A DNA stretch of 64,000 bases from an uncultured Rikenella sp. (GTDB lineage: Bacteria; Bacteroidota; Bacteroidia; Bacteroidales; VadinHA17), in NCBI GenBank assembly GCA_964455705.1, contig CAYVYM010000001.1, positions 131,930 to 195,929 of the forward strand. The letters are read 5' to 3'. Shown in pieces: positions 2,212 through 62,972 of this stretch (positions are counted from its first letter, which is position 1; the number at the start of each line of letters is the position of its first letter). The notes under the pieces are model-generated. The model saw only the letters and a list, made by a program, of their open reading frames with translations. It did no database searches and had not been told where the DNA came from. A program made the position numbers and the translations under genes.

Positions 2212-2231
2212 TATTTATATTATAAGTTGAA

Positions 2232-3232: not shown

Positions 3233-3288
3233 AAAAATAATTCAAAATATTTCAATTTTATAGGTTTTATTATTTATTTTGAAGAATT

Positions 3289-22775: not shown

Positions 22776-22865
22776 TGTAAGGTCATCAGGAAGGTAATTA
22801 TTGGAATGGCGGTACGTTAACATTAATAACAATCATTACTTTTGCATTTAACTAAGGTGATCAGC

Positions 22866-24842
22866 ATGAACAGACCATTAATCCTCATATTTACACTGGT
22901 TTTACTTCTTCCTGTTGCTCTCAGTGCGCAGAAACAAAAGACTGAGCGTGCTTACTCAGCCTACCAGGCCGGAAGCTACTATGATGCCATAGACCTCTTC
23001 AAGGATGTCTACTCGAAGACCCGTGACAAACAGGCGAAGGCTGAGATGGTCTTCATGGTTTCTGAGTGCTACCGTCTGATAAACGACCCGAAGAATGCAG
23101 AGCTCTGGTACAAGAGAGCCGTCAGGTCGGCATTCCCCAGGCCTGAGGCGCAGTACTGGCTGGCTGAGAGCACGAAGAAGCTGGGACGGTACCCCCAGGC
23201 CATAGAGGAGTTCCGCAAGTACCGGCAGCTTGTGCCCGGCGACCCCCGTACCGAGCAGCAGATACGCGCCTGTGAGCTTGCCATCGAATGGCAGGCCTCC
23301 CCGGAATCGTATAACGTCGAGGAGCTGAAGGAGGTCAACTCCAGGAACTCCGACTTCAGCCCTGCATTCGGGCGCGATGATAATGGGCTCCTCTGGTTTA
23401 CCTCATCACGTGATGACGCCCAGGGTAACAAGGAGCACGGTGCCACAGGACAGAGCTTTTCGGATATTTTTGAGACCAGGCTTGACAAGAAGGCCAAGTG
23501 GAGCACCCCTGTGCCGGTTGATTTCCTCAACAGTGAGTTTGAGGATGGTACTCCATCATTCTCTTCAGACTTCACAGAGGTATATTTCACCCGTTGCGAG
23601 GCTGGCAAGCGCGAGAGCAAGGGGTGTGTGATAATGTATTCCACCCGTGAGGGCACACGCTGGTCGAACCCGGTGAAGCTGGAGCTGCTTGCCGACTCGC
23701 TTGTTGCTGCCCACCCCTCAGTCTCTCCTGACGGCCAGACGCTCTATTTTGTCTCCGACATGCCGGGCGGACTGGGCGGAAAAGACCTATACCGTTCCAC
23801 CCGCACCTCGCCCGGCAGCCCGTGGTCGAGGCCCGAGAACCTGGGAACCGACATTAATACCAGGGGCAATGAGCTCTTCCCATTCATCCGCGAGGACGGA
23901 ACACTCTATTTCGCTTCTGACGGTCACATCGGAATGGGCGGTCTGGATATCTTCAGGGCGACGCCCCAGGCTGGCGACAGCTGGATTGTCAATAACATGA
24001 GGCCGCCGATAAACAGCCCGGCAGATGACTTTGGCATCACCTTCGAGAAAGGCGCCGAGAAGGGCATCTTCAGCTCGTCACGCAAGGGACGCGGAGTTGA
24101 TGACCTCTATACCTTCGAGATGCCTCCGCTGCTCTTCAGCATCACCGGACTCGTGAAGGATGAAAAGAGCGGGCTGCCCGTTCAGGGCGCAACGGTACAG
24201 CTCATCGCCAGCGATGGCGCCAACATGCAGACAGAGACAGGCAATGCAGGCGATTTCAAATTCAGCCTCAGACCGGAGGTTGACTATATCTTCCTGGCCT
24301 CAATGAGGGGCTTCCTGAACGGCAAGGAGAAAGAGACAACAAGGGGACAGGACAAGAGCCGTGAGTTTATGGCTACAATCCTTCTGACACCTATTGACAG
24401 GCCTATTGAGCTGCCGAACATATTCTACGACTTCGGGAAGTGGGACCTGCGTCCCGAATCCATGGTCTCACTTGATAAGCTGGTAGAGACCCTGAATGAC
24501 AATCCGAACGTTACAATTGAGCTGATGTCGCACACTGACTCGCGTGATACCGAGGAGTACAACATGGATCTTTCACAGAAAAGGGCGCAGTCGGTTGTGA
24601 ATTACCTCATCGGTAAGGGAATCGCTTCTGACAGGCTCACTGCCAGGGGTTATGGTGAGGGCAGCCCGAAAGTGGTGGATGCAGTCATCATTGAGGACGC
24701 TCCGTTCCTTCGTTCCGAAGCCACACTTAACGAACAGTACATCAACTCACTCGCCAGCGAGGAACAGAAGGAGATAGCACACCAGATCAACCGACGCACT
24801 GAATTCAGGGTGTTGAGGACCGACTATGTTCCTGCAAACTAA
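22866..24842 (+). CDS. OmpA-family protein with TPR, TolB-like beta-propeller repeats and C-terminal OmpA domain
   Basis: Signal peptide MNRPLILIFTLVLLLPVALSAQ. TPR-like N-terminus. Repeated ..LYF.SD..GG.GG.D.. propeller-type motifs. C-terminus is OmpA-like (MSHTDSRDTEEYNMDLSQKRAQSVVNYL...NRRTEF). I prefer ATG 22866 over TTG 22842. Confidence 0.8.
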   Translation: MNRPLILIFTLVLLLPVALSAQKQKTERAYSAYQAGSYYDAIDLFKDVYSKTRDKQAKAEMVFMVSECYRLINDPKNAELWYKRAVRSAFPRPEAQYWLAESTKKLGRYPQAIEEFRKYRQLVPGDPRTEQQIRACELAIEWQASPESYNVEELKEVNSRNSDFSPAFGRDDNGLLWFTSSRDDAQGNKEHGATGQSFSDIFETRLDKKAKWSTPVPVDFLNSEFEDGTPSFSSDFTEVYFTRCEAGKRESKGCVIMYSTREGTRWSNPVKLELLADSLVAAHPSVSPDGQTLYFVSDMPGGLGGKDLYRSTRTSPGSPWSRPENLGTDINTRGNELFPFIREDGTLYFASDGHIGMGGLDIFRATPQAGDSWIVNNMRPPINSPADDFGITFEKGAEKGIFSSSRKGRGVDDLYTFEMPPLLFSITGLVKDEKSGLPVQGATVQLIASDGANMQTETGNAGDFKFSLRPEVDYIFLASMRGFLNGKEKETTRGQDKSREFMATILLTPIDRPIELPNIFYDFGKWDLRPESMVSLDKLVETLNDNPNVTIELMSHTDSRDTEEYNMDLSQKRAQSVVNYLIGKGIASDRLTARGYGEGSPKVVDAVIIEDAPFLRSEATLNEQYINSLASEEQKEIAHQINRRTEFRVLRTDYVPAN

Positions 24843-29988: not shown

Positions 29989-30039
29989 GGGTATTCAGAA
30001 TTCAGTTTAACTGATGACTGAATACCCATTTTTCTTTTC
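29989..30039. terminator. Bidirectional terminator-like hairpin
   Basis: 10-bp arms GGGTATTCAG (29989-29998) and CTGAATACCC (30018-30027). On the plus strand TTTTTCTTTT follows. On the minus strand TTTTAATCC follows. It lies downstream of the seven-gene minus-strand operon and of the small plus-strand ORF. Confidence 0.5.
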
Positions 30040-30137: not shown

Positions 30138-31109
30138 TCAATTCCCGATCAGCGGCAACAGTCTGCTGATGTCTTCCATACTAAATGCCTCCTTAAACCT
30201 CAAAAGATCGTGACTAGTACTGTTCTTTTCCAGGTACTCTTCCTTCAAATTCCGCAGATACTCCTTATTCTGAATTGCATTAAAGTTTATTATCTGGATT
30301 GTGGACCTTGGCAGTTCCCTGTTCCAGTATTCGGGGTTGACTTTTACTATACGCGGGAATAGGCTGTCCTGGCCGCCATACCCATGCTGGTAGGTAACCC
30401 GTGAGACACCTCCGCCGAAGTATGCCTGTTTATCACGAAATTCCTCAGGAATCTCATTCCAATCCTTCTCAATGAAATCAATCAGGTACTGGGAGGCATC
30501 TTCGTTTTTTGATTCTTCCCTCACCGCTGCGAAGGCCTCACTCACTGTGACTGGAATCCAATAGGGGGGCCTTGACGGATCATAAATAACGAACCACTCA
30601 CCGTCGTAAACATCGATTCCAGGCTCGACAGTCCTTTTTCTTAAAGGGGCTGTAAAATACCCGTGTTTGGCGTTATGGTTGTACGTCGCCTCCCAGCCGG
30701 GTTTAGCCTGGTTGATGTATAATGACCACTCCGGGGGCTCAATGGCATTCATGACTATTGTTCCGTCTTTCCTTCTGAACCATGAGCTGAACTCAAAGCT
30801 GATCCTTGATGGTATCCCATATCCTGCAACCTCTTTGCAGTTGAGATTATAGATCCTTGCCCTGCCTTCGAATCCCCTGATGTCACTCAGGACGGGATTC
30901 TGGCGGATCACACTGACCACATCAGTAATTCTCTCCAGGTTTGTGGTGATCTCACTCTTTGTGAAGCCACAGTCATACCCTACATAGTTTGTGCGGCTAA
31001 GGATTGTGAAAGTGCCGGGTTTATCGCGTACCAATGACGATTCCTGGGCAATCAGCCCGGGGAGTAGTCCTGTTGCAAAAACAAGGCATATGGCAATTTT
31101 CTTTTTCAT
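30138..31109 (-). CDS. Secreted hypothetical protein, paralog 1 (operon gene 7)
   Basis: 323 aa. Signal peptide MKKKIAICLVFATGLLPGLIAQ. About two-thirds identical by eye to the upstream neighbour (shared blocks GEWFVIYDPSRPPYWIPVTVSEAF, AYFGGGVSRVTY, FPRIVKVNP.YWNRELPRS.IQIINF). I recognise no family. Confidence 0.8.
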   Translation of the reverse strand: MKKKIAICLVFATGLLPGLIAQESSLVRDKPGTFTILSRTNYVGYDCGFTKSEITTNLERITDVVSVIRQNPVLSDIRGFEGRARIYNLNCKEVAGYGIPSRISFEFSSWFRRKDGTIVMNAIEPPEWSLYINQAKPGWEATYNHNAKHGYFTAPLRKRTVEPGIDVYDGEWFVIYDPSRPPYWIPVTVSEAFAAVREESKNEDASQYLIDFIEKDWNEIPEEFRDKQAYFGGGVSRVTYQHGYGGQDSLFPRIVKVNPEYWNRELPRSTIQIINFNAIQNKEYLRNLKEEYLEKNSTSHDLLRFKEAFSMEDISRLLPLIGN

Positions 31110-31202
31110 ACATGTATAATTCCAAAATTAGGTTTTACAGAGTCAACAATGACAGTAAGGGCTGATCTCAGGACTTCATTCCGGCAGGCACAGTGTGCAG
31201 GA

Positions 31203-32183
31203 CTATTTCCCGATCAGTGGTACCAGCCTCTTGATTTCTTCCAGATCAAATGTCTCCTCAAAGCGATACAGATCATGAGCTATACTGTTCTTCTCCCGGG
31301 CTTCCTCCCTCGATCGCCTGAGATATTCCTTATTCTGGACTGCGGTGAAATTAATGATCTGGATTGCAGAACGGGGCAGCTCCCTGTTCCAGTAATCCGG
31401 ATTCACCTTTACTATACGCGGGAAGATGCTATCCTGATTGTCAGACCCGGGCCTGTAAGTAACCCGTGAGACACCCCCGCCGAAGTATGCAGGCTTGTCG
31501 CGAAAATCTTCCGGAATTTCATTCCACTCCTTTTCAACTAAATCATTCAGCATCTTGACGGCTGTTTCGTTTTTTTCTTCATTTATATTTTCCCTTGCCG
31601 CAACGAAAGCCTCACTCACCGTGACGGGGATCCAGTAGGGGGGTCTGGACGGATCATAAATAACAAACCACTCACCGCCATAGACATCGATGCCGGGTTC
31701 AGGAGTCTTCTTGTCCAGTGGTGCGGTGAAATACCCGCGTTTGGCGGCATGACTGTATGTCGCCTGAAATCTTGGCTCAACTTTGTTGATAAGAAGAGAG
31801 AATTCGGGCACTTCATATGGATGCATTGTCACTGTTCCATCTCTCTTTCGGTACCACGAGCTGAATTCAAAGCTGACCCTTGATGGTATTCCGTATCTCC
31901 CGGGCTCTTTACAGCCGGGGTTGTAGATTATTGCCCTGCCTTCGAATCCCACAGGATTCGCGAGGACAGGATTTTGCCTGACAATGTTGATGAGGTCCGT
32001 TAGTATCTGAGCGTTAGCGGCTACCTCTGCTTTTGTGTATCCGCAGTTGGAGTTAACATAATCAGGATGACTCCGGATAGTGAAAGTGCCGGGTTTGTCG
32101 GTTACCAGAGGCAACTCCTGGGCAATCAGCCCTGTGACCAGTCCGGTTGCAAGGACAAGGCATATGGCAATCTTCATTTTCAT
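31203..32183 (-). CDS. Secreted hypothetical protein, paralog 2 (operon gene 6)
   Basis: 326 aa. Signal peptide MKMKIAICLVLATGLVTGLIAQ. It is a paralog of 30138..31109. Confidence 0.8.
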   Translation of the reverse strand: MKMKIAICLVLATGLVTGLIAQELPLVTDKPGTFTIRSHPDYVNSNCGYTKAEVAANAQILTDLINIVRQNPVLANPVGFEGRAIIYNPGCKEPGRYGIPSRVSFEFSSWYRKRDGTVTMHPYEVPEFSLLINKVEPRFQATYSHAAKRGYFTAPLDKKTPEPGIDVYGGEWFVIYDPSRPPYWIPVTVSEAFVAARENINEEKNETAVKMLNDLVEKEWNEIPEDFRDKPAYFGGGVSRVTYRPGSDNQDSIFPRIVKVNPDYWNRELPRSAIQIINFTAVQNKEYLRRSREEAREKNSIAHDLYRFEETFDLEEIKRLVPLIGK

Positions 32184-32195
32184 TACATTGAAGTT

Positions 32196-34565
32196 TTAAT
32201 ATTTTGTACTGACAGAATCAACTGTGACAGTAATAGCCGACTTGAGAACATCCATCCCGGCAGAGACTGACTCAGGGCATTTTTCAAACTGGTTCAGGAA
32301 ATCCTTCCCGGCTTTGTCGTAGTCTTTTGTACGTTCAATTAACGAATCAAGCTGAGGTTTTACCTCTGTGACCCTCCTCTGGAATGTGGCAGGATCTTCA
32401 ACAGCAGCAGCCTGGATTGTATCTGTCAGTGCTGACAGCTCATTCAGGGCGATTGAATAATCATTTACTGCAATACTATTGAACTTTTCAACGCAGTCAC
32501 CGATATACTTGATTCCTGCCTGCAGAGTAGATATCCCCTCAATGTCAGGGGTAATGCCCTGAGTCTTATCGCATCCGCACTCTCCCGGTGAATATGGCAG
32601 ACCCACCTGCAGTGGCTCGCTTGTCGGCGGTGGCGGTGAGATTGGGGGTTCTTCATCTCCCGGCTCCGGTTTTGGTTGCTCCGTTGGGGGCTCCTGTACC
32701 GGAGGGGTGTCGGTCTTAGGTTTGGGGTCAACAGGAGGTTTCGGTTCAGGTGGCTCAGGAGTGGGGTCTGTCTTTGGTTCTTCCGTTTTCTGAGGTTCGG
32801 TTTTATCGCCCTTGCAGATCTGTTGAAGTTGTTCTATTCTCTTAAGGTTCTTTAGAGCTTGATCCCAGTTTTCATGCGCACCCTTCAGAGCCTCCTCATG
32901 GGACCATATCTTCCCGATGTTATCTCCGAATCTGGTCCCGGCCTGGGCAACACCGTAGATCCCGGTCAGTGTGCTCATGGCTCCTCCTGCAAGCAGACCC
33001 GCTGCACCTATAATGGCATCCTGTGACTGTGCCGACCCGTTGAAACTACCAATCATTTCTGAGATTACCGCTCCTGCATTAGCGATCTCTGAGGCGGCTT
33101 TAATTGCTCCCGAAGTCTTTCCGCCTGATATGATTGTAAGTCCTGCCTTAGCAAGCAGGTCCACAGCTGATGCGGTAAGGTCATCTACTGCTTTTTCAAA
33201 TTCTTTTGAGCCGGTAACCTTCTTTATTTTCTCCGCTGCTTCCTGCAGGTTTTCAATTGCGGCCTGCTTCATCCTCTCAAGCGCTTCCACAGTCTCCTTA
33301 TCACAGTTAACAACTTCCACTTCAACGGTCGGACCTGTAGCATGGCCACAGTTTGTTTTTGCCTGAAGGGTGGTATTTCCTGCACGTGAACCTGTTAATT
33401 CAACTGCTCCTGGTAGTCCAACAGCCGACAGAACGGATTTATCAGCGGCGACGAAATCGACCAGTTCTTCCAGATTCGATGGTTGGGCCGTAACAGGAAT
33501 TTTAAGTACACCTGAAAGTCTCTTTCCATCTATATCGAAGAGTGCAATCTGCGGAATCTCCTGCCCGCCATTGTAATTTTCGATATTCACATAGGAAGCA
33601 GGTTGAGATGCTGTATTCGTTTTCCCTGTAGGGGTGGTGTACTCCACATACACCGTACCTTTTCCCGGTGTTGCACCTGTCAGTATAGCAGAAGATTCAC
33701 CGTCGGCTTCAACATTGAGTAAAGTGCCTGGCTCGACCCAGAACCGAAACTTTCCGCCTTCAGGTTTTCCGGATGCCATAACCTCGGTTTGTTCTCCTGT
33801 GCCGAGTTCAGAACAACCGTATAGAGACACCTCCGGTTTGTCTGGTTCCTTATAGGGGCTGATTGTAATATCCAGAGTGGTTTCTCTGTTGATAAATGCT
33901 GTGCCATCAACTGAATGTCTTTGTTTTTGTTCATTGAATTTCCATGTTGCCTGGTAACCCGAAGCAGTTTTAATAATTTTGCATTTATTGTCGGAGCCCA
34001 CATCGCAGCCACCTGCACATGAAATATAATACTCATCAATATCACCTCCATAATCTTTCCATTCACCGTTAAACATGCGTCCCTTATCCGACCCTGTTGC
34101 AATGATTCCGGTATTGATGCTGACTGATTTGCTATCGTCGGCATAATAGAATTGTACAGCAGCATTAGGCGCCGAAGAGCCGGAAACATTAATATCCCTG
34201 TTATCAGCATGTATCATCGTACCATCAATGGTTTCAAGGAAAGTTGAAGATTCAGAGTGTGATCCCTGTCCTGTAATAGAAAGGGTTACCTGATCACCAG
34301 CGTCTGAATCGAATGTGAAATCCTTGTCCGGGCTTTCAGCCTGATTTTCGATGATAGCCGTAATAACGCAACTCGACACGGTTCTTACTGTAGCGTGTTT
34401 TTCTTTATCCCATTTTTTATTCCCGGCCATAAAACTTATAAGCGTATCCCTCTGCATAGAGTAGCTAACAGATATTTTAGCTGTAAGCAACCACAATCCC
34501 GTATCCTGAGCAAGAGAAGTAATGCTCATTATCAGCAGAGCGAAAAGAACGGTAGACTTTTTCAT
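32196..34565 (-). CDS. Large secreted protein: beta-rich N-terminus, two Ig-like (Big_2-like) segments, Gly/Ala-rich hydrophobic helical segment, Pro-rich linker, helical C-terminus (operon gene 5)
   Basis: 789 aa. Signal peptide MKKSTVLFALLIMSITSLAQ. Ig-like stretches (e.g. VELTGSRAGNTTLQAKTN...TVEVEVV). Residues ~474-547 read GLTIISGGKTSGAIKAASEIANAGAVISEMIG...AIIGAAGLLAGGAMSTLTGIYGVAQAG. Residues ~588-651 form a PEPK-type proline-rich spacer. Confidence 0.8.
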   Translation of the reverse strand: MKKSTVLFALLIMSITSLAQDTGLWLLTAKISVSYSMQRDTLISFMAGNKKWDKEKHATVRTVSSCVITAIIENQAESPDKDFTFDSDAGDQVTLSITGQGSHSESSTFLETIDGTMIHADNRDINVSGSSAPNAAVQFYYADDSKSVSINTGIIATGSDKGRMFNGEWKDYGGDIDEYYISCAGGCDVGSDNKCKIIKTASGYQATWKFNEQKQRHSVDGTAFINRETTLDITISPYKEPDKPEVSLYGCSELGTGEQTEVMASGKPEGGKFRFWVEPGTLLNVEADGESSAILTGATPGKGTVYVEYTTPTGKTNTASQPASYVNIENYNGGQEIPQIALFDIDGKRLSGVLKIPVTAQPSNLEELVDFVAADKSVLSAVGLPGAVELTGSRAGNTTLQAKTNCGHATGPTVEVEVVNCDKETVEALERMKQAAIENLQEAAEKIKKVTGSKEFEKAVDDLTASAVDLLAKAGLTIISGGKTSGAIKAASEIANAGAVISEMIGSFNGSAQSQDAIIGAAGLLAGGAMSTLTGIYGVAQAGTRFGDNIGKIWSHEEALKGAHENWDQALKNLKRIEQLQQICKGDKTEPQKTEEPKTDPTPEPPEPKPPVDPKPKTDTPPVQEPPTEQPKPEPGDEEPPISPPPPTSEPLQVGLPYSPGECGCDKTQGITPDIEGISTLQAGIKYIGDCVEKFNSIAVNDYSIALNELSALTDTIQAAAVEDPATFQRRVTEVKPQLDSLIERTKDYDKAGKDFLNQFEKCPESVSAGMDVLKSAITVTVDSVSTKY

Positions 34566-34584
34566 ATTTTATATTTATCTGATT

Positions 34585-35739
34585 TCAATTGCGTACCAGA
34601 CTGAAGTCAATTTTTACCGTTGTCTTCTCCGTCCCCTGTGATACATCTTTTTCTTCATTCTGACTCAACACCTTATCCTCAGGGGTACCCTGGTATGGCC
34701 CGAAGACTGCAGTAAACGGCACATCTATGCTCTTGGTTATTGTATCAGGTGGTTCGTTCTCATTATTACCGGTACACGGCCCGTCAACTTTCTTCTCCGT
34801 GGTAATCTTCATCGTTCCCTTTTCGGAAGTGGCCTTTACAGTCAGGAGGTAAGTGCCATCATCAAGAAAAGTAATCCTGATTCTGGCATCAGATACCTGT
34901 GCCCCGTCAGAAACGCTTTCCCTTGAAAGACCCTGGACCTTTGCCTCTGATTCTTTCGTTTGGGTAATTTTTGCATGACCTTTAATACCATCCTTACAGA
35001 CATAGCAGGAGTGGCTGATGATTGTCCTGTAATTCTCCTTGAGATCATATGTGACAGTACCGGAAGCACCTGCCAGGGATTCCTTTACCAGCTCCCATCT
35101 GAGGGTCGAATTGCTCTTAATCTCCACATCCGTGGCAATCAGGCCGGCGTCGCACGGGATAGAACTGGATGACGATTCATCCTTCTCGCTTTTAACTTCG
35201 ATGTTTACGGTGCCTGTATAAGGGCAGATCTCATATTTCTTCAGCTGATCCATCAGCCTTTTTACTGGCTTTATGGTTGATTCCCCTGTGACTTCTGCGG
35301 GTGAGAACGGCTCACTGAAATCTGCGATTATCTCTCCCTCTTTGTTTGTGCAGACTACTGTAGCCTGGGCCATATCCTCGGAATTGACGAACATGCTGTA
35401 TTTTACGGCTAAGTCAGGGTTGGCCAGGGATTGGGCGATTTTACTGACAACAGGTTTTATATCGCGGCCTCCGAATTCCGGGGTTGACTGCAGGCGCAAT
35501 TCATTCATGCTTGACTGTATCGCCTTAGGATCGGTCACCCCCACACAGGGGTAATTCCTTTCCATTTCACTAACCATGTCGGTGATGAATATATCATTAA
35601 GACCTCTTGACAGGTAAAGGAGATTACTGTCCGCCGAACCAGCTTTTGGCACCAACAGCATCCTCAGATCCTGGCAGGAAACCTGCTGAACAGGCAGCAA
35701 CATCAGTGCGAAAAGGAAAACCGGGATTGAACACTTCAT
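34585..35739 (-). CDS. Secreted Cys-containing hypothetical protein (operon gene 4)
   Basis: 384 aa. Signal peptide MKCSIPVFLFALMLLPVQQVSCQ. The start overlaps the upstream stop (ATGA). I recognise no family. Confidence 0.75.
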   Translation of the reverse strand: MKCSIPVFLFALMLLPVQQVSCQDLRMLLVPKAGSADSNLLYLSRGLNDIFITDMVSEMERNYPCVGVTDPKAIQSSMNELRLQSTPEFGGRDIKPVVSKIAQSLANPDLAVKYSMFVNSEDMAQATVVCTNKEGEIIADFSEPFSPAEVTGESTIKPVKRLMDQLKKYEICPYTGTVNIEVKSEKDESSSSSIPCDAGLIATDVEIKSNSTLRWELVKESLAGASGTVTYDLKENYRTIISHSCYVCKDGIKGHAKITQTKESEAKVQGLSRESVSDGAQVSDARIRITFLDDGTYLLTVKATSEKGTMKITTEKKVDGPCTGNNENEPPDTITKSIDVPFTAVFGPYQGTPEDKVLSQNEEKDVSQGTEKTTVKIDFSLVRN

Positions 35740-36740
35740 CTGGTAATGACTTTACAGGCAGGATACATGTTTTCAAGCTGGGCTATTTCAGATTCCGGCA
35801 CCTCGGTATTTATCAACCCAAGTTCCTCCAGGTTTTTGAGTTTATTCAGTACCGGAAAGGTCGACATTAACGGATTATTGTCGGCATATAGTTTCTTCAG
35901 TCCTGGCAGCTCTTCAATCACCCCGGGCAGTGAAGTCAGGCTGTTATTGAAGATGCCGAGGGTCTTAAGATTTCTGAACAGCGATATCTCCTGTGGGAGT
36001 GTGGTGACAAATACCCCAAGGTTTACGATATATAGTTCATCAAGTGGATAGTCAGCGGCGTTCTTCACTATTGTTGTCAGGTCAACCGGCACCGGGCTCT
36101 GAGTGTTTGTTATAACCAGGGTCCTTATGGATTTGTACAGAGGCATGATGTCGATGATAGCCTGTATTCCCCTCATTGATACATCTATCACCAGCACCTC
36201 CAGCTCCCCGGCGACCCAGGGAATAGGCTCTATTGCATCATCCTGCCGGTATTCCTCAACGATCTCCTCTCGCAACGGTTCTGCTAATAATATGTCCGCT
36301 CCCTTACCACCGCCAGCAGCCTTTATTATCTGACCAAAAATGTCAATCTTCTGCTGTGCCATGTCCTGGCTTATCTCCGCCATCTTCTCAGCGTCATCAG
36401 AGGAGTCCTGTCCCGATTGGTTCCCTGATCCGGAACCTGTTCCGGCTCCGGACCCGGCAGGCGCACCGGATCTGCCCTGCATGTTTGTGCCGGACAACAA
36501 CTGTTTTGCCAGATCACGGATCTGCTCGTTGGCCTTTTTTGCAGCCGCAGGGTCATCCCAGTTGGTTGTACGCCTGATCTCAGCCATCCGTTGCCTGATC
36601 TGGTCGGGTGACTGTGTGCTCTGTGCAGTGACAAGAGCTGACACGCATATCATCATCACCATAAGCCAACGCTTCACCTGACCAGGGTTTGACAGAATGT
36701 TCAACCTCCGCCTTCCCACCGTGGGAGAGTCGCTATTCAT
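35736..36740 (-). CDS. Leucine-rich-repeat protein with N-terminal helical and Gly/Ser-rich regions (operon gene 3)
   Basis: C-terminal LRRs (LPQEISLFRNLKTLGIFNNSLTSLPGVIEELPGLKKLYADNNPL...LKNLEELGLINTEV). The hydrophobic signal-like segment is WLMVMMICVSALVTAQ. The start is ambiguous. ATG 36740 overlaps the upstream stop by 8 nt (ATGAATAG). The alternatives are GTG 36677 and ATG 36662. The ORF-track start at 36845 is unlikely. Confidence 0.7.
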   Translation of the reverse strand: MNSDSPTVGRRRLNILSNPGQVKRWLMVMMICVSALVTAQSTQSPDQIRQRMAEIRRTTNWDDPAAAKKANEQIRDLAKQLLSGTNMQGRSGAPAGSGAGTGSGSGNQSGQDSSDDAEKMAEISQDMAQQKIDIFGQIIKAAGGGKGADILLAEPLREEIVEEYRQDDAIEPIPWVAGELEVLVIDVSMRGIQAIIDIMPLYKSIRTLVITNTQSPVPVDLTTIVKNAADYPLDELYIVNLGVFVTTLPQEISLFRNLKTLGIFNNSLTSLPGVIEELPGLKKLYADNNPLMSTFPVLNKLKNLEELGLINTEVPESEIAQLENMYPACKVITR

Positions 36741-37725
36741 CCTCAGCGAAGTAGAGCTTATATTGATAGGCGGCCTCCAATTTTTCAAGGTATCCGTCAA
36801 TAGCCCCCAGGGCCGGAATCTCCCTCCCCTCAGCAGGCATTTCAATGCCTGACTGTGCTTTGATTGCTTCGGCCGAAATGTTGCCCAGGTTCTGATAGTC
36901 CGGTATGGAAGACTTTATGATTTCCAGGTGTTTGCGGAGTGCGGCACGGTACTTTGGAGTATACTTGTTGCAGTATGCTATTTTTTCATTCTTAATCAAA
37001 AGTGCCAGCGAATCCATCTGCTTCCCCTGACCGTAGTCGATTCCTGTCATTGACATCCTCTTATTATGCCAGGCATCCATCCTGTCAAGCATTTTCTGCC
37101 GCTCAGGATCAGATTCGAGAGGCGTGTAAAGCGCTGCAATCTTATTGGTTATTTCAGATATCTTACTGTTTGCTGCCTGCTGTGATATAACTGACTGATA
37201 CATGCTTTGCGCGTTCCTGTTCCTCGCTTCCTGGTTCGGATCAGCCTGATGGGTTGCTATTGCTTCCGTTGCGTAGGCTTCAGCATAGGCTTTTTTCCCT
37301 GCCTCGCTCATTTTTCCAATACTTTGCGCGTCATCCATCGTCATATTGGTCTGCTGTGACATCATCTTGTTTGCCAGAGCCTGCTTTTCGGCAGCAGACA
37401 TGTTCTTCGAGTTCTTCATCTTCTCGAGGTCTGCCTGGGAGATACCGTACATCTCCGACATCTGCTTCATGGCATTGTCACGAGCATTGCCTTCATTGGC
37501 TTTCATATGCGTGTCAACCCTCTTATTGATTGCATGGAGCTCTTCCTTTAGCTGCTTCTGCAGTCCTGCAACCGCAGATTTAAAGTCTTCCGCCGCCACC
37601 CTTGTGATGTTGCATGAATCCTTCGGCAGCACCGGGAGTTTCTTCAGATAATCGGCCGTTCTGGTCTGTGCCAATGACAATGATCCTATGCCCAGTGTGA
37701 TGAGCATGAGAAAAACCTGCCTCAT
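36733..37725 (-). CDS. Secreted alpha-helical Met/Gln/Ala-rich hypothetical protein (operon gene 2)
   Basis: 330 aa. Signal peptide MRQVFLMLITLGIGSLSLAQ. Its start lies 3 nt after the upstream stop (TAAaccATG). I recognise no family. Confidence 0.75.
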   Translation of the reverse strand: MRQVFLMLITLGIGSLSLAQTRTADYLKKLPVLPKDSCNITRVAAEDFKSAVAGLQKQLKEELHAINKRVDTHMKANEGNARDNAMKQMSEMYGISQADLEKMKNSKNMSAAEKQALANKMMSQQTNMTMDDAQSIGKMSEAGKKAYAEAYATEAIATHQADPNQEARNRNAQSMYQSVISQQAANSKISEITNKIAALYTPLESDPERQKMLDRMDAWHNKRMSMTGIDYGQGKQMDSLALLIKNEKIAYCNKYTPKYRAALRKHLEIIKSSIPDYQNLGNISAEAIKAQSGIEMPAEGREIPALGAIDGYLEKLEAAYQYKLYFAEDE

Positions 37726-37728
37726 GGT

Positions 37729-39033
37729 TTAGAGTTTTATGAACTCAACCCTGCGGTTCAGTGCCTTGTTGGCGGGGGTGTCATTGGGTGCAACGGGTTG
37801 GCCTTCGCCCATACCGTCGGTCACAAGACGGTCGCCGTTCACTCCGAACGACTTCACCAGCTCGTTCTTCACTGATGCGGCCCTGCGTTTTGAAAGATCA
37901 AGGTTGGCAGCATCGGCGCCGTCGGCATCGGTATGGCCTACAATTTTGACCTTGACATCGGGGACTTCATTGAGGATACCTGCTATCTCCTTGAGCGTCC
38001 CGTATGACTCCGGTTTTACAACATCCTTGTTTACATCGAAATAAATCCCGTAGGTAATAAGCTTGCCTTCGGTCATCAGCTTATTGCGCATGTCAGGTGC
38101 ACCCACGGCAATGCGTACATTGCTGATCATGGCGGCACCGTACTCAAACCTCAGCCTGTCTGGCTTAACGCAACCTGCCGGAAATGCCCTTGGAAGATCA
38201 ATGATCTTGTTCTGATCCTGGTAAACGCGTACCCTGGTTTTCTGAACCCATATTGCAATATGGTATTTCTGGTTCATCTTCTCCTTCAGGTTGTCTCCGT
38301 CGATATAACCGGTCAGCTTGGCAGGAACGCATGCCTCACCGTAGAACCAGGTACCGTAACTGGGCCTGCCGAAATATTCAACCTGGAAATGGAATCCACC
38401 CTGGCCGGGTGCCGATCCATGGTCAAAAGCATTTACGTTTCTCGCCTGCATCAGTCTCATATGCCATCCTGACATACCCGGACCCTCCAGTCCGCCTATG
38501 GGAATAATATCATATTCAATTGTATAATTCTCAGGCAGCTTAAGCAACCCGTCAGTCCAGACGCTCTCATCCATCACAAATCTCATCCAGTTGCCCGGGT
38601 AGAGATTAGTGGTTACCACCTCAGCTGAGCCGTTGGTGTTCCACAATGCCGGGAAGTCGCCCACGGCATCCTGGCTGAAATCGTCATAAAAGATTACCTT
38701 CTCACCCGGGATAAAGTCATATTTGGAATAGCTCTCCAGTGAGGTCCCTGACTGGCTTCCGGCCTTCTGGTCGCTCTTGCCCTGAGCCTGTCCGTCTGCG
38801 GTGTTCTGGCCACCTGCTGCCTGTCCTGATCCGTCATCAGCTTTGAGTCCGGCTGCGATACTGTCCTCTGCAGTATCAAGCACCTTGTTGATAGCCTGGT
38901 CAGTCTTCTGGTTGAGCCGCCTGTTTACATTCTGCTCAAGTTTTTTCTTAAGATCAACCTTGATCTGTGCTTCTGCATTAATGGTCATGCTAAATAAAAT
39001 CAGCACAGCCATAATCCTGGTTAGGGTCTTCAT
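37729..39033 (-). CDS. OmpA-family protein with central beta-sandwich domain (operon gene 1)
   Basis: 434 aa. Signal peptide MKTLTRIMAVLILFSMTINAEAQ. A low-complexity Gly/Gln/Ala segment is followed by the SYSKYDFIPGEKVIFYDDF block. The C-terminal OmpA-like domain reads VKIVGHTDADGADAANLDLSKRRAASVKNEL...NRRVEFIK. Confidence 0.85.
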   Translation of the reverse strand: MKTLTRIMAVLILFSMTINAEAQIKVDLKKKLEQNVNRRLNQKTDQAINKVLDTAEDSIAAGLKADDGSGQAAGGQNTADGQAQGKSDQKAGSQSGTSLESYSKYDFIPGEKVIFYDDFSQDAVGDFPALWNTNGSAEVVTTNLYPGNWMRFVMDESVWTDGLLKLPENYTIEYDIIPIGGLEGPGMSGWHMRLMQARNVNAFDHGSAPGQGGFHFQVEYFGRPSYGTWFYGEACVPAKLTGYIDGDNLKEKMNQKYHIAIWVQKTRVRVYQDQNKIIDLPRAFPAGCVKPDRLRFEYGAAMISNVRIAVGAPDMRNKLMTEGKLITYGIYFDVNKDVVKPESYGTLKEIAGILNEVPDVKVKIVGHTDADGADAANLDLSKRRAASVKNELVKSFGVNGDRLVTDGMGEGQPVAPNDTPANKALNRRVEFIKL

Positions 39034-39345
39034 TTTCGTACGTGGATAAAATAAATTTTACTATAGTTTCTGGTTAATAGTAAATTTAAAGCTTTTCTTC
39101 GATTCGTTGTCTTCCCTTTCATCTACATTTTAAAAGGCTTCGTCAAAAAAAACAGGGGAGTGATCACCGGTAGCCTGTAATGCGGGATTCAGATCCTCTT
39201 CCTGGAGAGCCGTCTGTGACCGCACCGGATACGTCCCGGTTTTTCTTTAATTCAGGTTCCCGGAGCATTTTTTGTCCATTCTTGTTTTGTCCTTTTGTTT
39301 CATTGTTCGTAACTTTGGGTAGCTGCATTTTTAAATATACCGACA

Positions 39346-57680: not shown

Positions 57681-58259
57681 ATGCCCCGGAAAAAGCGATA
57701 TAATTCTGATGATGTCCTTGAGAAAGCAATGCATGTTTTCTGGAATAACGGTTATGAACAGACATCAGTAAGAATGCTTGAAAAGGAGATGGGCATCAAT
57801 CAGTTTTCAATCTATGCAAGTTTCACCTGTAAGCATAATCTTTTCATTGAATCATTAAGAAAATACAGGGAGTATGTAATTAAGAATGTCTACAGCGAAC
57901 TGTTAAAACCCGAAGCCAGACTAAAAGACCTTGAAATATTTCTGAACCGTCTGGTTGAGGACAGGAGCCGGGGCAAAGAGTACAGGGGTTGCCTGGCGGT
58001 TAACACTACCGGGGAGATCAATCCTACGGACAAAGAGGTTACTGTTGAACTTACTGATTACTATATGTTTATCAGGGAGATGCTTAAGAAAATACTTATG
58101 AATTCAATTGAGGCCAAAGATATTTCAGCTGATACTGATCTTGAAAAGTACTCAAGCTTTCTATTAGGCGCTATGCAGGGATTATTATTGGGTGCTAAAG
58201 TACTTCCCGAAAAACAGATACGTGACCAGATAGAGGTGTCATTATCAGTCTTTGAATAA
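57681..58259 (+). CDS. TetR/AcrR-family transcriptional regulator
   Basis: 192 aa from ATG 57681. HTH region VLEKAMHVFWNNGYEQTSVRMLEKEMGINQFSIYASF. Confidence 0.88.
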   Translation: MPRKKRYNSDDVLEKAMHVFWNNGYEQTSVRMLEKEMGINQFSIYASFTCKHNLFIESLRKYREYVIKNVYSELLKPEARLKDLEIFLNRLVEDRSRGKEYRGCLAVNTTGEINPTDKEVTVELTDYYMFIREMLKKILMNSIEAKDISADTDLEKYSSFLLGAMQGLLLGAKVLPEKQIRDQIEVSLSVFE

Positions 58260-58304
58260 TTTTTTACATAGTTCCAGGCAAGTTCTGCGATAACATCCTA
58301 CCTA

Positions 58305-60980
58305 TCAGTTCCGCAATAAAAATGTATCTTTTATAAGTTTTAACAGCTCCTCCTTGCTGACCGGTTTGGAGATGTAGCTGTTGCATCCCGCCTCCATTAC
58401 TTTCAGTCTGTCCGTATCAAGAGCCAGTGCTGTCTGTGCTATGATCACAATCTTTTTGTTGAATTCACGGATTTTTTGTGTTGCCTCATAACCATTTAAT
58501 TCCGGCATTCGCATATCCATCAGCACCAGATCTGAATCGGGATTCAATTTGCATAATTCAACAGCTTCTATACCATTACGAGCAAATACTATTTTTCCGG
58601 CTATGTCCCGCAAAGTTATCTCAAGAAATCTGCTGCTTACTTCATCATCCTCAGCAATTACAATATTCAGTTTTCTGTCGAAACTATCACTGATAATCTC
58701 TTCGGTACCGGGTACAGGAGTTTGTGTATCAGGTTTGCGATTGAAGCGAGGCAGTGTGAACCGGAAGGTAGATCCTGTTCCGGAATAAGATTCAAGCCAG
58801 ACCTTACCTCCAAGTAAATGCACATATGCTTCAACAATTGACAGGCCTATTCCTGAACCTTCGTAATTTTTTGATAACTCATTTTCGACCTGGACAAAAC
58901 GTTTAAAAATTTCTTTCTGCATGTTCTCGGGAATACCAATGCCGGTGTCGCTTATGAAGAATTCGATAAAATCTCCCTTGATCCGGCACCCAAATCCGAT
59001 TCTACCGTAATCAGTGAATTTGAGCGCATTCTTGATCAGGTTTGAAAGAATGGAATCAAGCTTGGTTTTATCTGTTTTTATCACAGCTGTTTCCGGGGGG
59101 AGAGCAGATTCAAGAACCAGGTTAAGACCTTTTTTGTCCGCCTGAGCTCTGAAAAGCTCATGGTAATAAGTAAGCTGATCATTAATATTTACTTCTGAAA
59201 CAGATATTTCTAGTTGCCCGGTCTCTATTTTTGACATATCAACCAGGTCAGTCAAAGTGCTTAGCATACGGTTACCGCTTTCCTGTATGATGTCAATAAA
59301 TTGCCCCTGCTCGGTGCCTGTCAGTCCGGGTGATCTTAAAAGGTCAGTAAATCCCAAAATTCCATTCATGGGTGTGCGGATCTCATGACTTAAATTTGCA
59401 AGAAAAGCCGATTTCAGCCGATCGCTTTCCTCTGCCTTGTCCCTCGCTTTTACAACCTGATCATACAGTTTTCTCTCGGAGGTGACATCCATCACAGTTG
59501 ACACCATAATATTCTGTTCAGGGAGAGGAATGTTAACGGCATTAACTATGGCATTCGATCCGTCCTTCCTTGTAATAGTATTGTTCTCCCAGTGCATTCG
59601 GGAAGCATCACCTGAAGATAAGTCTTCTATAATAGCCGACATAATCTTTTCTCTGTAAACCTCATCAGGGTAAACTTTTTCAAAAAAATCATTAACACCT
59701 TTGATCTCATCTCCGTCCCAGCCGTAGATTTCCTCAAACCGGCGATTCATATAGATTGCAGACCCATCATCTGTTTTGTTAAGTGCCACCCCGATGGGAA
59801 GATTATCCATGACCGTTTGAATAAACTGCGTCTTCTCCGATAGCGCAAGCTCGGCATTCTTCCTGTCCGTAATGTCAAACATTAAACCTCTCAGGGTTGC
59901 AGGCTTCCCGTTTTTCAACTCCACACTTACAACATCCCTGATCCATACGAAAGAACCATCCTTCTTACCAAACCTGTATTCAATCTCATGAGACTCCATC
60001 TTATCATTGAATGACAAGAATTGACCGGAGGCATTCTCCCTGTCATCAAGATGGAGATTTGTTATCCAGAAGTCGAGATTTGTCCACTCATCCGGATGCC
60101 ATCCCAGCAAAGAGGTTGACTGGGGTGCAACATAAACCCACCTGTCTTCTGAAATACTGTATTCCCAAACTACAGCTTTAACCGATTCAACAAGCTCCCT
60201 GTATTTCTTTTCATTTAACTCCAGTTTCTCCTGAATCATATACTGCCTGGTCACATCGCGAAACACCAGTACAACTCCTGTAATGTTTCCATTTCGATCA
60301 CTGATGGGTGACCCTGAATCAGCAATCTGATACTCCCTGCCATCCCTGGAAATAAGTTTGGTATGATTAGCCAGACCAATACAAGCTCCCGTTTGAAATA
60401 CCTTCCTAACAGGATTAACTACCTTTCTGCCATTTTTGGCATTTACTACATTGAAGACAGTTGTAATCGATTGATTTAATGCTTCATCAACTGACCACCC
60501 CGTAAGATCACATGCTACAGAATTCAAGCTTGTAACATTACCATCAAGATCAGTTGTGATAACACCGTCACCAATTGAATTTAATGTGGTACTGAGATGC
60601 TCCTTGCTTCTGTATAGTTCTTCTTCGGCTATTAACCGGTCACCTATATCCCTGATAAGACCGATAAAACCCTTTATCTCCCCTTTAGGATCTCTAAAAT
60701 AAAATACATTTGTTTCGCCGGAGAATATTTCGCCTGTTTTTTTCTTGTACTGAACGGTATGAAGCTTAGTCGGGTCATCGATATTATCCTTTATCTTTTT
60801 CCCCATTTCTCTGAACTCGTCCATATCCTTGTAGATATGGAAGATCTTCATTCCCCTGATCTCTTCATTAGTATACCCAAACAAATCTGTAAATGCAGGA
60901 TTGGAGTCAATTATTATGCTGTCGGTATCAGCTATGAGGATGGAATCGCGGATACTTCTGAATAAATCGTCATAAAACAT
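58305..60980 (-). CDS. Hybrid sensor histidine kinase/response regulator with multiple PAS domains
   Basis: 891 aa. There are 4-5 PAS-like units. H-box SHEIRTPMNGILGF. HATPase motif (GSGIGLSIV). C-terminal receiver (DLVLMDMRMPELNGYE). Confidence 0.9.
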   Translation of the reverse strand: MFYDDLFRSIRDSILIADTDSIIIDSNPAFTDLFGYTNEEIRGMKIFHIYKDMDEFREMGKKIKDNIDDPTKLHTVQYKKKTGEIFSGETNVFYFRDPKGEIKGFIGLIRDIGDRLIAEEELYRSKEHLSTTLNSIGDGVITTDLDGNVTSLNSVACDLTGWSVDEALNQSITTVFNVVNAKNGRKVVNPVRKVFQTGACIGLANHTKLISRDGREYQIADSGSPISDRNGNITGVVLVFRDVTRQYMIQEKLELNEKKYRELVESVKAVVWEYSISEDRWVYVAPQSTSLLGWHPDEWTNLDFWITNLHLDDRENASGQFLSFNDKMESHEIEYRFGKKDGSFVWIRDVVSVELKNGKPATLRGLMFDITDRKNAELALSEKTQFIQTVMDNLPIGVALNKTDDGSAIYMNRRFEEIYGWDGDEIKGVNDFFEKVYPDEVYREKIMSAIIEDLSSGDASRMHWENNTITRKDGSNAIVNAVNIPLPEQNIMVSTVMDVTSERKLYDQVVKARDKAEESDRLKSAFLANLSHEIRTPMNGILGFTDLLRSPGLTGTEQGQFIDIIQESGNRMLSTLTDLVDMSKIETGQLEISVSEVNINDQLTYYHELFRAQADKKGLNLVLESALPPETAVIKTDKTKLDSILSNLIKNALKFTDYGRIGFGCRIKGDFIEFFISDTGIGIPENMQKEIFKRFVQVENELSKNYEGSGIGLSIVEAYVHLLGGKVWLESYSGTGSTFRFTLPRFNRKPDTQTPVPGTEEIISDSFDRKLNIVIAEDDEVSSRFLEITLRDIAGKIVFARNGIEAVELCKLNPDSDLVLMDMRMPELNGYEATQKIREFNKKIVIIAQTALALDTDRLKVMEAGCNSYISKPVSKEELLKLIKDTFLLRN

Positions 60981-61102
60981 TGTGCTATGATTGTAAATTG
61001 AAATCTCTAATATCTGAAAGGTCTTCAGAGGTCTGGCAAAAACACCAGGATCATCTGGAACTAAACTCTAATGTTCAAAATTACAACTAATTAATGTGAT
61101 TA

Positions 61103-61119
61103 CAAAGCAAATGCTTAGA
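61103..61119. promoter_or_regulatory. Second copy of candidate TetR operator
   Basis: Exact 17-nt repeat of 57645-57661. It lies in the 320-bp divergent region between the hybrid kinase (start 60980, minus) and the TauE gene (start 61301, plus). Confidence 0.4.
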
Positions 61120-61300
61120 AATAATACTATAATTGCCTTGTATAAAAATTTAGCGCGGAATACGTTGTAAGGTATTTTAATGATATGTATCTTATTGTCC
61201 CAACACTGAAAGCAGGAGATTGTTCAGGTTGTGTCTCCGGGCGCAGGTTAAAATTTGAACCATATCACTTCAAAACGTGTTCTGATTAAAACATCTTCAT

Positions 61301-62074
61301 ATGGATATTTTTATCATTAGTCTGGCCGCCTTTTTTACTGCCATTCTTACATTCTTTTCCGGATTTGGACTTGGGACCATTCTGACTCCGGTTTTTGCAA
61401 TCTTTTTCCCGGTTGAAATTGCCATTGCATTAACCGGAGTGGTTCATTTTGCAAATAATCTTTTCAAGATTACACTGGTCGGAAAAAATACGGACAGAGC
61501 AGTTTTATTAAGGTTTGGAATTCCGGCTATTCTTGCCTCATTTGCCGGTGCATGGTTATTACTCAGAATAACAGATATGCCGTCACTTTTTAACTATCAC
61601 ATTTGGGGTAAAGAATATGAAGTCATGCCGGTGAAACTTGTTATCGCAGTGCTGTTGGTTATTTTTTCGGTACTTGAAATTGCCCCTTCAATGCAAAGAG
61701 TGCAATTTAAAAGGAACAAGCTTGCTCTGGGTGGGGTTCTGAGTGGTTTTTTTGGCGGGCTGACCGGAATTCAGGGTGCAATCCGTAGTGCCTTCCTTAT
61801 CAAAAGCGGTTTATCCAAGGAAGCATATATTGCAACTGGGGTAGTCATTGCATCTCTTGTTGATTTTACAAGACTTTCGGTCTATGCTTCACGATTTAAG
61901 GTGGCAAACCTTCATGAGCATTGGATACTTATTCTCTCGGCTGTATCTGCAGCCATACTCGGGGCATTTATCGGGAATAAACTGTTAAAGAAAGTGACAT
62001 TAAGGTTTGTTCAGGTGTTAGTGGCAATATTGTTGTTTTTGATTGCAATCGTTCTGGGGGCAGGAATTATCTAG
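61301..62074 (+). CDS. TauE/SafE-family sulfite/anion exporter
   Basis: 257 aa with about 8 TM spans. Gly-rich internal repeats (FFSGFGLGTILTP / GFFGGLTGIQGA) are typical of TauE. Confidence 0.75.
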   Translation: MDIFIISLAAFFTAILTFFSGFGLGTILTPVFAIFFPVEIAIALTGVVHFANNLFKITLVGKNTDRAVLLRFGIPAILASFAGAWLLLRITDMPSLFNYHIWGKEYEVMPVKLVIAVLLVIFSVLEIAPSMQRVQFKRNKLALGGVLSGFFGGLTGIQGAIRSAFLIKSGLSKEAYIATGVVIASLVDFTRLSVYASRFKVANLHEHWILILSAVSAAILGAFIGNKLLKKVTLRFVQVLVAILLFLIAIVLGAGII

Positions 62075-62087
62075 AAATAAAGAAACC

Positions 62088-62534: not shown

Positions 62535-62581
62535 TCCTCACCTGTTTCATTAAATTTGTCTTACAAATATTTAACGGAATT

Positions 62582-62944: not shown

Positions 62945-62972
62945 TTCAAACTGATCAAACATTCTGTAACTT

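Follow-up and report, generated by a model that had tools for sequence, protein, structure and literature searches.

A cluster of seven exported proteins headed by an OmpA_C protein in an uncultured Bacteroidales bacterium: a possible peptidoglycan-anchored, modular periplasmic assembly

The cluster described here lies in a stretch of 64,000 nucleotides (hereafter, the window) from an uncultured Rikenella sp. of the Bacteroidales (GenBank assembly GCA_964455705.1, contig CAYVYM010000001.1, positions 131,930 to 195,929 of the forward strand). A reading of this DNA made without database searches (the sequence-only reading) had pointed to seven minus-strand open reading frames (ORFs) over 30138-39033 as a candidate envelope system. 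All seven are present at these positions, and their sequence features, domain identities and comparative anatomy are described below. The genes, numbered g1 to g7, and the signals around them are as follows (aa, amino acids).

37729-39033, minus strand: g1, 434 aa, putative anchor protein with a C-terminal OmpA_C domain
36733-37725, minus strand: g2, 330 aa, exported protein of a new family (export predicted here and below)
35736-36740, minus strand: g3, 334 aa, exported protein with leucine-rich repeats (LRR) at the C-terminus
34585-35739, minus strand: g4, 384 aa, exported Cys-rich protein of a new family
32196-34565, minus strand: g5, 789 aa, large exported modular protein
31203-32183, minus strand: g6, 326 aa, exported single-domain alpha/beta protein of a new family, subtype g6a
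30138-31109, minus strand: g7, 323 aa, second g6a-type paralogue
39034-39345: divergent intergenic region of 312 bp between g1 (minus) and a DUF2851 gene (plus)
~39080-39088, minus strand: -7-like box TAAATTTAC upstream of g1
31123-31130, minus strand: exact Bacteroidota -7 box TAATTTTG in the gap between g6 and g7
29989-30027: stem of a bidirectional terminator-like hairpin between the convergent g7 and major facilitator superfamily (MFS) genes

The junctions from g1 to g7 are those described before: a 3-nt gap, an 8-nt overlap, a 4-nt overlap, and gaps of 19, 12 and 93 nt. The 8-nt overlap of g2 and g3 depends on an ambiguous start, however. It holds with the ATG at 36740, which gives an n-region of 25 residues; the in-frame ATG at 36662 is the start of most homologues (MRYVLMV...), and with this start the overlap is replaced by a gap of approximately 70 nt. 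The divergent upstream region has the length claimed for it. It contains a sigma-70-like match at 39084-39055 in addition to the -7-like box, and it probably holds the predicted g1 promoter. The downstream hairpin was also borne out, with a folding free energy of -25.3 kcal/mol (z = -4.0; 0 of 200 shuffled sequences folded equally well). Its outer stem is 10 bp long; an A-run lies upstream of it and a T-run downstream. The exact -7 box is located 14 nt upstream of the g7 ATG, inside the 93-nt gap, and is the single match to TAnnTTTG on the minus strand within the cluster. Elsewhere in the window, many matches to this box sit just 5' of gene starts. Judging from the consensus match, the box may be an internal promoter from which g7 is also transcribed alone. 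The G+C content of the cluster (0.45-0.51) is slightly below that of its flanks. Scans of the window for Rfam families and tRNAs gave no match.

All seven products begin with a signal peptide ending just before Gln, as had been noticed from the sequence. Each has the n/h/c layout; positions -3 and -1 are occupied by small residues, and Gln stands at +1. This Gln is invariant or nearly so among homologues (Q22, Q23 and Q20 in the alignments A1, A2 and A3, respectively). A signal peptide followed by Gln at +1 is the pattern of the Bacteroidetes Q-rule for substrates of signal peptidase I (SPI) (PMC5837995, PMC10653852), and all seven products conform to it, which makes them predicted SPI substrates. 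The mature proteins have no transmembrane segment (maximum 19-residue hydropathy <=1.57), and no conserved lipobox was found among the seven. The C-terminal sorting domain used by type IX secretion systems (T9SS; Por_Secre_tail or TIGR04183-type) is absent from all of them at E<=1 in Pfam and NCBIfam. As a positive control, a 648-aa protein in one of the related clusters (L044:6950-8893) matched Por_Secre_tail at 5.6e-13; this protein is an unrelated insert in that cluster, between g4 and the g6-type genes. Conserved Cys residues occur in even sets: C235 and C288 of g1, C38 and C252 of g2 (both invariant), six in g4, eight in g5, and C47 and C91 of g6. This points to an oxidizing extracytoplasmic compartment.

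Only two recognizable domains were found in the cluster with Pfam, NCBIfam and PADLOC, namely OmpA_C in g1 and LRR in g3. The same libraries gave no enzyme, ATPase, transporter, T9SS C-terminal domain, fimbrial or SusC/D match, in agreement with the sequence-only reading. FimA/Mfa pilin lipoproteins and a pair of TonB-dependent receptor and SusD were also searched for in Pfam and NCBIfam, and neither was found in the seven proteins. The statement that genes 2, 4, 6 and 7 match nothing known held against Pfam, NCBIfam, PADLOC and PDB. Together with g5, these genes make up four families (g2, g4, g5 and g6/g7; five genes) with no match in these four resources. A search of the literature found no description of this cluster.

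The OmpA_C domain of g1, which had been recognized by eye, matches PF00691 with 78.6 bits (cut-off 27.2; 4.7e-22) over residues 331-427, and it matches OmpA_C domains in PDB with values up to 6.6e-21. It is known that the peptidoglycan-contact motif of OmpA_C (TD..G...N..LS..RA) binds diaminopimelate through its Asp and Arg. In g1 this motif is present as GHTDADGADAANLDLSKRRAASV; T368, D369, D371, G372, N377, L380, S381, R383, R384 and A386 are invariant in both a 31-homologue and a 13-homologue set. The g1 family is large (2576 hits; mean column identity 80%), and its OmpA_C domain is nearly invariant across lineages, even in homologues that are approximately 50% identical overall; those of Prolixibacteraceae are 47-52% identical. 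In front of this domain, g1 consists of the SPI signal peptide (cleaved between NAEA and Q), a basic amphipathic helix of ~40 aa, a low-complexity linker of ~40 aa rich in Gly, Gln and Ala, and a beta-rich domain of ~210 aa. To the eye, the beta-rich region looks like a soluble beta-sandwich. No beta-barrel family in Pfam matched residues 1-320 at E<=1. The AlphaFold2 model of residues 14-313 has a predicted local distance difference test score (pLDDT) of ~25; it was computed from an alignment of 31 sequences with 73-94% identity, that is, of shallow diversity. DUF6250 appeared as a recurrent sub-threshold match in the g1 family, with a best E of 0.014, in 7 of 13 homologues. The name "OOP family OmpA-OmpF porin" is given to g1 homologues by some automatic annotation pipelines.

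The basic amphipathic helix (residues 23-60 of g1; ~38854-38967, minus strand) is common to other proteins encoded beside g1 homologues. Its pattern is Q-I-x-x-x-L-K-x-K-x-x-N-x-x-N-x-R-x-N-x-K-x-D-x-x-I-x-K-x-L-D. The proteins sharing it are exported DUF4412-like proteins of ~300 aa and a 164-aa protein (L004:11062-12006, L008:11364-12245, L036:13413-14360 and L042:2282-2773). The common helix may be a docking or sorting module. A relationship of the g1 beta-domain itself with the DUF4412-like proteins was rejected (hhalign probability 0.5%).

The products of g2, g3 and g4 follow g1. The g2 protein is rich in Met, Gln and Ala, seems helical by eye, and carries the motif LPxLPxDSCN. The 21 members of its alignment (A3) reach down to 22% identity; NCBIfam gave no match for it, and Pfam gave none that was consistent. 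It is found in 36 of 68 related clusters. In g3, the LRR proposed from the sequence are supported by LRR_4 (32.4 bits; cut-off 27) over residues 257-295, with LRR_8 and LRR_14 below their cut-offs. The protein starts with a conserved segment, QIRxxMAEIRRTTNWDDPAAA (helical by eye), followed by a Gly/Ser linker and the C-terminal LRR. The N-terminal module (residues 22-84) is, in other genomes, fused to a tetratricopeptide repeat (TPR) domain of ~600 aa in place of the LRR. The g4 protein has the motifs EICPYxG and CYxCxxG, and its six Cys are invariant (alignment A5); neither Pfam nor NCBIfam gave a match. It occurs only together with the LRR form of g3. The VSC/Q junction of g4 raised the possibility of a lipoprotein, which was rejected as probably wrong: the Cys of the signal peptide is not conserved in homologues.

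The g5 protein is the largest of the seven. Its body consists of a conserved Ala/Gly-rich middle (helical by eye), a Pro-rich spacer and a conserved C-terminal Cys domain; the eight conserved Cys are seen in alignment A6. Four unrelated N-terminal head types (A-D) are found on this one conserved body in the clusters surveyed. The number of g5 homologues is 175. The Ig-like segments that had been suggested for g5 were not recovered. No Ig profile of Pfam or NCBIfam matched g5; in g5 and in 120 listed homologues no Pfam family at all reached its threshold, and g5 had no sequence match in PDB. One source names a g5 homologue "TonB", a name attributed to the Pro-rich spacer. A hydrophobic stretch at residues 518-536 is not conserved among homologues. 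An immunity-like pairing of the g5 head with the g6 subtype was considered and rejected, in that g6a accompanies heads A, B and C alike.

A point absent from the sequence-only reading is that g6 and g7 are paralogues (68% identical by BLASTP). By inspection of alignment A1, g7 is identical to the database protein P0011. The g6 family has 237 homologues, all "hypothetical" or unnamed and none with a Pfam domain; a search of 1.84 billion proteins gave only 196 representatives, of which the 150 listed are all 395 aa or shorter. The mean column identity is 61%. The AlphaFold2 model of g6 is of the alpha/beta type, with pLDDT of 86 and a predicted template modelling score (pTM) of 0.83. Foldseek with this model found nothing at E<=1e-3 in PDB or BFVD, so that the confidently predicted fold of g6 has no match in these two databases at this threshold. 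The top matches (CsgG, PelC, LptE-like and FlgT) were at noise level and were not used. Profiles of the superfamily, built from the 196 representatives and from an alignment of 47 distant relatives, matched nothing in PDB and nothing consistently in Pfam. The conserved positions of the superfamily are only of the Gly, Pro, Asn, Tyr and Gln types, which argues against catalysis.

The sequence-only reading had expected these genes to co-occur in related genomes, and this was found strongly. One genome per species was scanned for g6 relatives, which gave 66 loci (numbered with the prefix L), all in metagenome-assembled genomes (MAGs) labelled Bacteroidales, "Rikenellaceae", Prolixibacteraceae/Draconibacterium or Lentimicrobiaceae; contigs from metagenomes added further clusters. 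The proteins of 68 clusters fall into only nine recurrent families: g6, g1, g5, g3, g2, g4, MORN_2, a TPR protein of ~1036 aa, and a DUF3108-like protein. The order is stereotyped. An intact g1 stands at the head in 37 loci, or in ~45 when fragmented copies are counted. It is followed by one of four adaptor cassettes. The g6-type genes come next, in one to four copies, together with g5 in zero to two copies. The cassettes are as follows.

Cassette 1: g2, g3 (LRR form) and g4, as in the window
Cassette 2: g2 and a ~700-aa protein in which the N-terminal module of g3 continues as TPR
Cassette 3: MORN protein and the ~1036-aa TPR protein (TPR-1036)
Cassette 4: DUF3108-like protein

Co-variation within the cassettes is strict: g4 goes with LRR-g3 only, and the MORN protein MORN-322 goes with TPR-1036. 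Domains are also swapped on constant modules, as seen in the N-terminus of g3 with LRR or TPR and in the body of g5 with its four heads. The g5 gene is absent from many clusters that retain g1 and g6. Across 306 junctions, the intergenic gaps have a median of ~30 nt. Most clusters occupy one main site in the core genome, pnp-rpsO-DUF2851 / cluster / MFS-pyrF-prfA-purM-PorE. The same architecture is present at other sites and in distant genomes (L004, L031, L078, L079) down to ~45-50% identity, and the order in L078 and L079 is g1-g2-LRR-g4-MORN-g6-g5. Searches of phage, plasmid and IMG/VR sequences gave no link with a mobile element.

The notion of a seven-gene system was changed by this survey: g1 and the g6-type genes are constant in the surveyed loci, whereas the other genes form interchangeable cassettes. 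The presence of g6 in 68 of 68 clusters carries an ascertainment bias, in that these loci were found through g6. Four loci were found through g1 instead, and the conserved order with g1 in first place recurs among them. Two of them have g6, one has g5 with a 38-aa ORF that may be a remnant of g6, and one has a DUF4412-like neighbour only.

Several observations on individual loci belong here. Two bins labelled Chloroflexota (L032, L072) and one labelled Spirochaetota (L071) contain g6-family genes on short contigs, and L032 also holds a purM-sized ORF (389 aa); binning contamination is probably the cause rather than horizontal transfer. In the MFD-labelled MAGs (L013, L015, L021, L024, L043, L056, L075, L077) the cluster genes are split into fragments, which look like frameshift errors of assembly rather than real pseudogenes; this fragmentation lowers the apparent gene counts in the synteny tables. 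Three loci of the Prolixibacteraceae type (L042, L067, L078) have a convergent conserved set directly downstream of the cluster on the opposite strand, which consists of an extracytoplasmic function (ECF) sigma factor, a FecR-like anti-sigma factor and three large exported proteins (MG2/CarboxypepD_reg; ~858, 525 and 540 aa).

Immediately upstream of g1, and divergent from it, many relatives encode a TPR-HisKA_3 histidine kinase and a response regulator of the LuxR/NarL type. By a crude heuristic, a hydrophobic segment is present at the N-terminus of several of these kinases. A box conserved upstream of g1 in relatives, TGTAG(A/G)TTTAC, is homologous to the -7-like box upstream of g1 in the window. 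Ahead of this box, a palindrome TCCCC-N6-GGGGA is located ~30-260 nt upstream of the g1 homologue in one or two copies (L001, L027, L034, L046, L052, L057, L059, L062, L070, L074, L075, L080, L081). It is present in approximately 10 of 11 loci with the adjacent kinase-regulator pair, versus one or two of approximately 20 loci without the pair. This distribution suggests that the palindrome is likely the operator of the adjacent LuxR-type regulator. Both the pair and the palindrome have been lost in the lineage of the window and in its closest relatives.

None of the seven proteins could be placed in a characterized system by profile, PDB or Foldseek searches, in line with the earlier expectation. 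By the features tested, the cluster does not belong to Pal/Tol-Pal, MotY, PorE, T9SS cargo, pili, polysaccharide utilization loci, Zorya or toxin-immunity loci. In its logic it may be compared with the OmpA_C-anchored periplasmic assemblies Pal/CpoB/TolB and MotY/MotX/FlgT, but it is built almost entirely from uncharacterized families. In the Tol-Pal system, Pal is the OmpA_C anchor, CpoB (YbgF) is an exported protein with an N-terminal coiled coil and TPR, and TolB is a soluble periplasmic partner. Here, too, an OmpA_C protein is encoded with soluble partners that have predicted Sec export signals, and the TPR form of g3 in relatives is CpoB-like in having an N-terminal segment that is helical by eye, a linker and TPR. 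However, g1 is predicted to be cleaved between AEA and Q, has no Cys or lipobox, and scores 64.4 bits against TIGR02802 (cut-off 125). The cluster contains no tolQRA or tolB genes, and five of its seven genes (four families) have no known relatives. Identification of the accessory TPR proteins as CpoB/YbgF was rejected, as they gave no match to the YbgF model.

In Vibrio, the soluble protein MotY, exported by way of SPI, consists of an N-terminal domain and OmpA_C; with the exported repeat protein MotX and the alpha/beta protein FlgT it builds a periplasmic structure of the flagellum. The set of g1, repeat proteins and g6 might be regarded as parallel to MotY, MotX and FlgT of the T/H-ring. 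On the other hand, g1 gives 44 bits against the MotY cut-off of 400, there are no flagellar genes here, and with E of 0.4-0.7 and a probability <=0.08, the Foldseek similarity of g6 to FlgT or the LPHT ring does not rise above noise. PorE, a peptidoglycan-anchored component of the T9SS, and CHU_0125-type proteins are envelope proteins specific to Bacteroidota that, like g1, join other modules to a C-terminal OmpA_C, and in them the joined modules mediate protein interaction. In contrast to them, g1 lacks TPR, beta-propeller and CarboxypepD_reg; its scores are 59.1 bits for PorE (NF052230; cut-off 600) and 61 bits for CHU_0125 (cut-off 620). A genuine PorE is encoded in the window at 22842-24842 (plus strand; 697.8 bits, cut-off 600), with TPR, PD40, CarboxypepD_reg and OmpA domains. 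This means that the organism has a T9SS. OmpA and OprF share the C-terminal OmpA_C domain with g1, but, as described above, residues 1-320 of g1 match no beta-barrel family in Pfam. With PADLOC, the only matches to defence systems were of the ZorB type, on the OmpA domain of g1; a ZorA match of 0.037 on g2 was noise, and no complete set was found. Polymorphic toxin/immunity loci and acquired interbacterial defence islands of Bacteroidales share several features with the cluster: the gene content of a single locus varies, exported paralogues and repeat proteins form arrays, and domains are swapped on a conserved body. They differ from it in that the cluster has no toxin domain, no immunity family and no recombinase (no toxin family in Pfam or NCBIfam, nor in Pfam for the g5 homologues), g5 varies at its N-terminus, head type is not tied to g6 subtype, and the families are few, conserved and located in the core genome.

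From these features we think it possible, though short of probable, that the cluster encodes a peptidoglycan-anchored, modular, non-enzymatic periplasmic assembly. This retains part of the proposal made from the sequence: the OmpA_C anchor, the seven SPI signals, the even sets of conserved Cys, and the lack of transmembrane segments, conserved lipobox and T9SS sorting domain are consistent with a peptidoglycan-tethered multiprotein assembly. The idea of a fixed set of seven genes is not retained. The export route, the location, the formation of a complex and its purpose are here inferred from sequence, and the assembly might operate as follows. After export, the N-terminal Gln would be cyclized as in the Bacteroidetes Q-rule. 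The g1 protein would bind to the cell wall through OmpA_C, and its highly conserved N-terminal helix and beta-domain might form a hub for soluble partners. The g6-type alpha/beta protein would be the constant, non-catalytic partner. Protein-binding surfaces would be provided by the adaptor cassette, that is, g2, g3 (LRR) and g4 here, and g2 with TPR, MORN with TPR, or the DUF3108-like protein elsewhere. The g5 protein seems suited to be an extended arm, in which the C-terminal Cys domain docks, the TonB-like Pro-rich spacer spans the periplasm, and the exchangeable N-terminal head determines the binding target. Such an assembly would likely have a structural or ligand-capturing role in the envelope, for its integrity, for linkage or for surveillance. 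The adjacent TPR histidine kinase, which would sense the periplasm, and the LuxR-type regulator might turn the cluster on in many relatives.

Several points weigh against this reading. Homologues of g1 occur without g6 (L008, L082), and a few distant genomes (L049, L058, L071) have homologues of g6 but not of g1; an obligate complex of the two is therefore not proven. The g1 protein might be a beta-barrel or be associated with a membrane in another way, given the pLDDT of ~25 for its N-terminal 313 residues. The candidate promoter of g7 may allow this gene to be expressed on its own, and the region upstream of g1 in the window (39034-39345) contains neither the two-component system nor the palindrome of the relatives. 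All carriers of the cluster are uncultured MAGs. Least well explained are the variable heads and multi-copy paralogues, which are more typical of conflict or surface systems than of a periplasmic scaffold with a housekeeping role.

The sequence-only reading had already offered an alternative, a secreted effector with accessory proteins. In such an antagonism module, g5 would be a bacteriocin-like effector whose head binds a receptor of the competitor and whose middle and C-terminal domain act on the target envelope, and the g6-type and repeat proteins would be protective or accessory. The four heads on a conserved body resemble the receptor-binding modules of colicin-type toxins, g5 always adjoins a g6-type gene, and the g6-type genes occur in one to four divergent copies, also without g5, like orphan immunity genes. 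LRR, TPR and MORN_2 are moreover repeat kinds used as immunity proteins in polymorphic-toxin systems. However, immunity proteins evolve rapidly, unlike g6 with its high column identity; the head type of g5 is independent of the g6 subtype; the variation of g5 is N-terminal and not at a C-terminal toxin domain; and g5, whose hydrophobic stretch is not conserved, is missing from many clusters with g1 and g6. No toxin, lysis or release function was found in any library searched, and the locus belongs to the core genome and is not mobile. Little speaks for antagonism, and we consider it improbable.

Another alternative is a surface or extracellular structure. The proteins would leave the periplasm by an unrecognized outer-membrane route or in vesicles and make up a fibril or an adhesive coat, which g1 would fix to the wall and in which g5 would be stalk and variable tip. 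The architecture of g5 (head, body, Pro-rich spacer and C-terminal anchor) and the LRR, TPR and MORN modules are adhesin-like, the MORN proteins weakly match adhesins of the Leptospira LIC20035 family, and head content that varies between close relatives would suit an exposed surface under selection. A T9SS is also at hand in this organism, as PorE indicates. The seven proteins nevertheless show no T9SS C-terminal domain, which is detectable when present (L044), and no lipoprotein signal, outer-membrane barrel signature or pilin match; OmpA_C works on the periplasmic face of the wall. A structure of this kind is, in our judgement, quite unlikely.

The genes might also form no system: g1 would then be an OmpA-family envelope protein of the housekeeping kind, and the genes downstream would encode functionally unrelated exported proteins at a permissive locus. 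This would fit the far wider distribution of g1 (2576 hits) compared with g6 (237) and g5 (175), the entirely different neighbours of g1 at L008, the variable content downstream, and a possible promoter of its own for g7. It is difficult to reconcile with nine families that recur in a fixed relative order across lineages and chromosomal sites (L004, L031, L078, L079), with the strict co-variation of the sub-modules, with the short gaps, and with a g1 gene at the head of 37 loci (~45 with fragmented copies). The chance that the genes are unrelated appears small. A periplasmic decoy or immunity island, in which soluble binding proteins held near the wall by g1 neutralize phage components or toxins acting in the periplasm, would explain the arrays of exported repeat proteins and divergent paralogues, the differing content among close relatives at one site, and the adjacent two-component control in relatives (suggestive of induction by envelope signals), but it is highly improbable in view of the families, which are few (nine), well conserved and not open-ended, the ~800-aa g5, which is unlike an immunity protein, the lack of a recombinase or mobile context, and the PADLOC matches, which are limited to OmpA-domain (ZorB-like) ones with no ZorA.

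Returning to the wall-anchored periplasmic assembly, a wider claim can be formulated, which we regard as doubtful: the cluster would represent an undescribed class of envelope system of environmental Bacteroidales and related Bacteroidota, in which a wall-bound hub displays swappable LRR, TPR or MORN adaptors and an extended protein with exchangeable heads in the periplasm, under an ancestral two-component switch with a TPR sensor, and which is built from four families without known relatives. It would amount to a modular apparatus for recognition or maintenance in the periplasm. If the reading as a wall-anchored assembly is right, widespread Bacteroidales of anaerobic digesters, sediments and soils arrange part of their periplasm around a wall-bound hub with exchangeable modules. 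To our knowledge, no model organism shows a wall-bound hub with exchangeable binding modules. The analysis defines four uncharacterized families (g2, g4, g5 and g6), one of them with a predicted fold unmatched in PDB and BFVD, and it yields an inventory of parts, in which g1 and a g6-type protein form the constant core, together with a candidate pair of regulator and operator. Practical consequences are few so far; every carrier is uncultured.

Some features of the window lie away from the cluster. The G+C content at its ends (1-4000 and 58000-64000) is 0.40-0.455, versus ~0.51-0.56 in the centre. The left end encodes a GH116-family glycosidase, a PfkB kinase and a LacI regulator, and the right end encodes a multi-PAS hybrid histidine kinase at 58305-60980.

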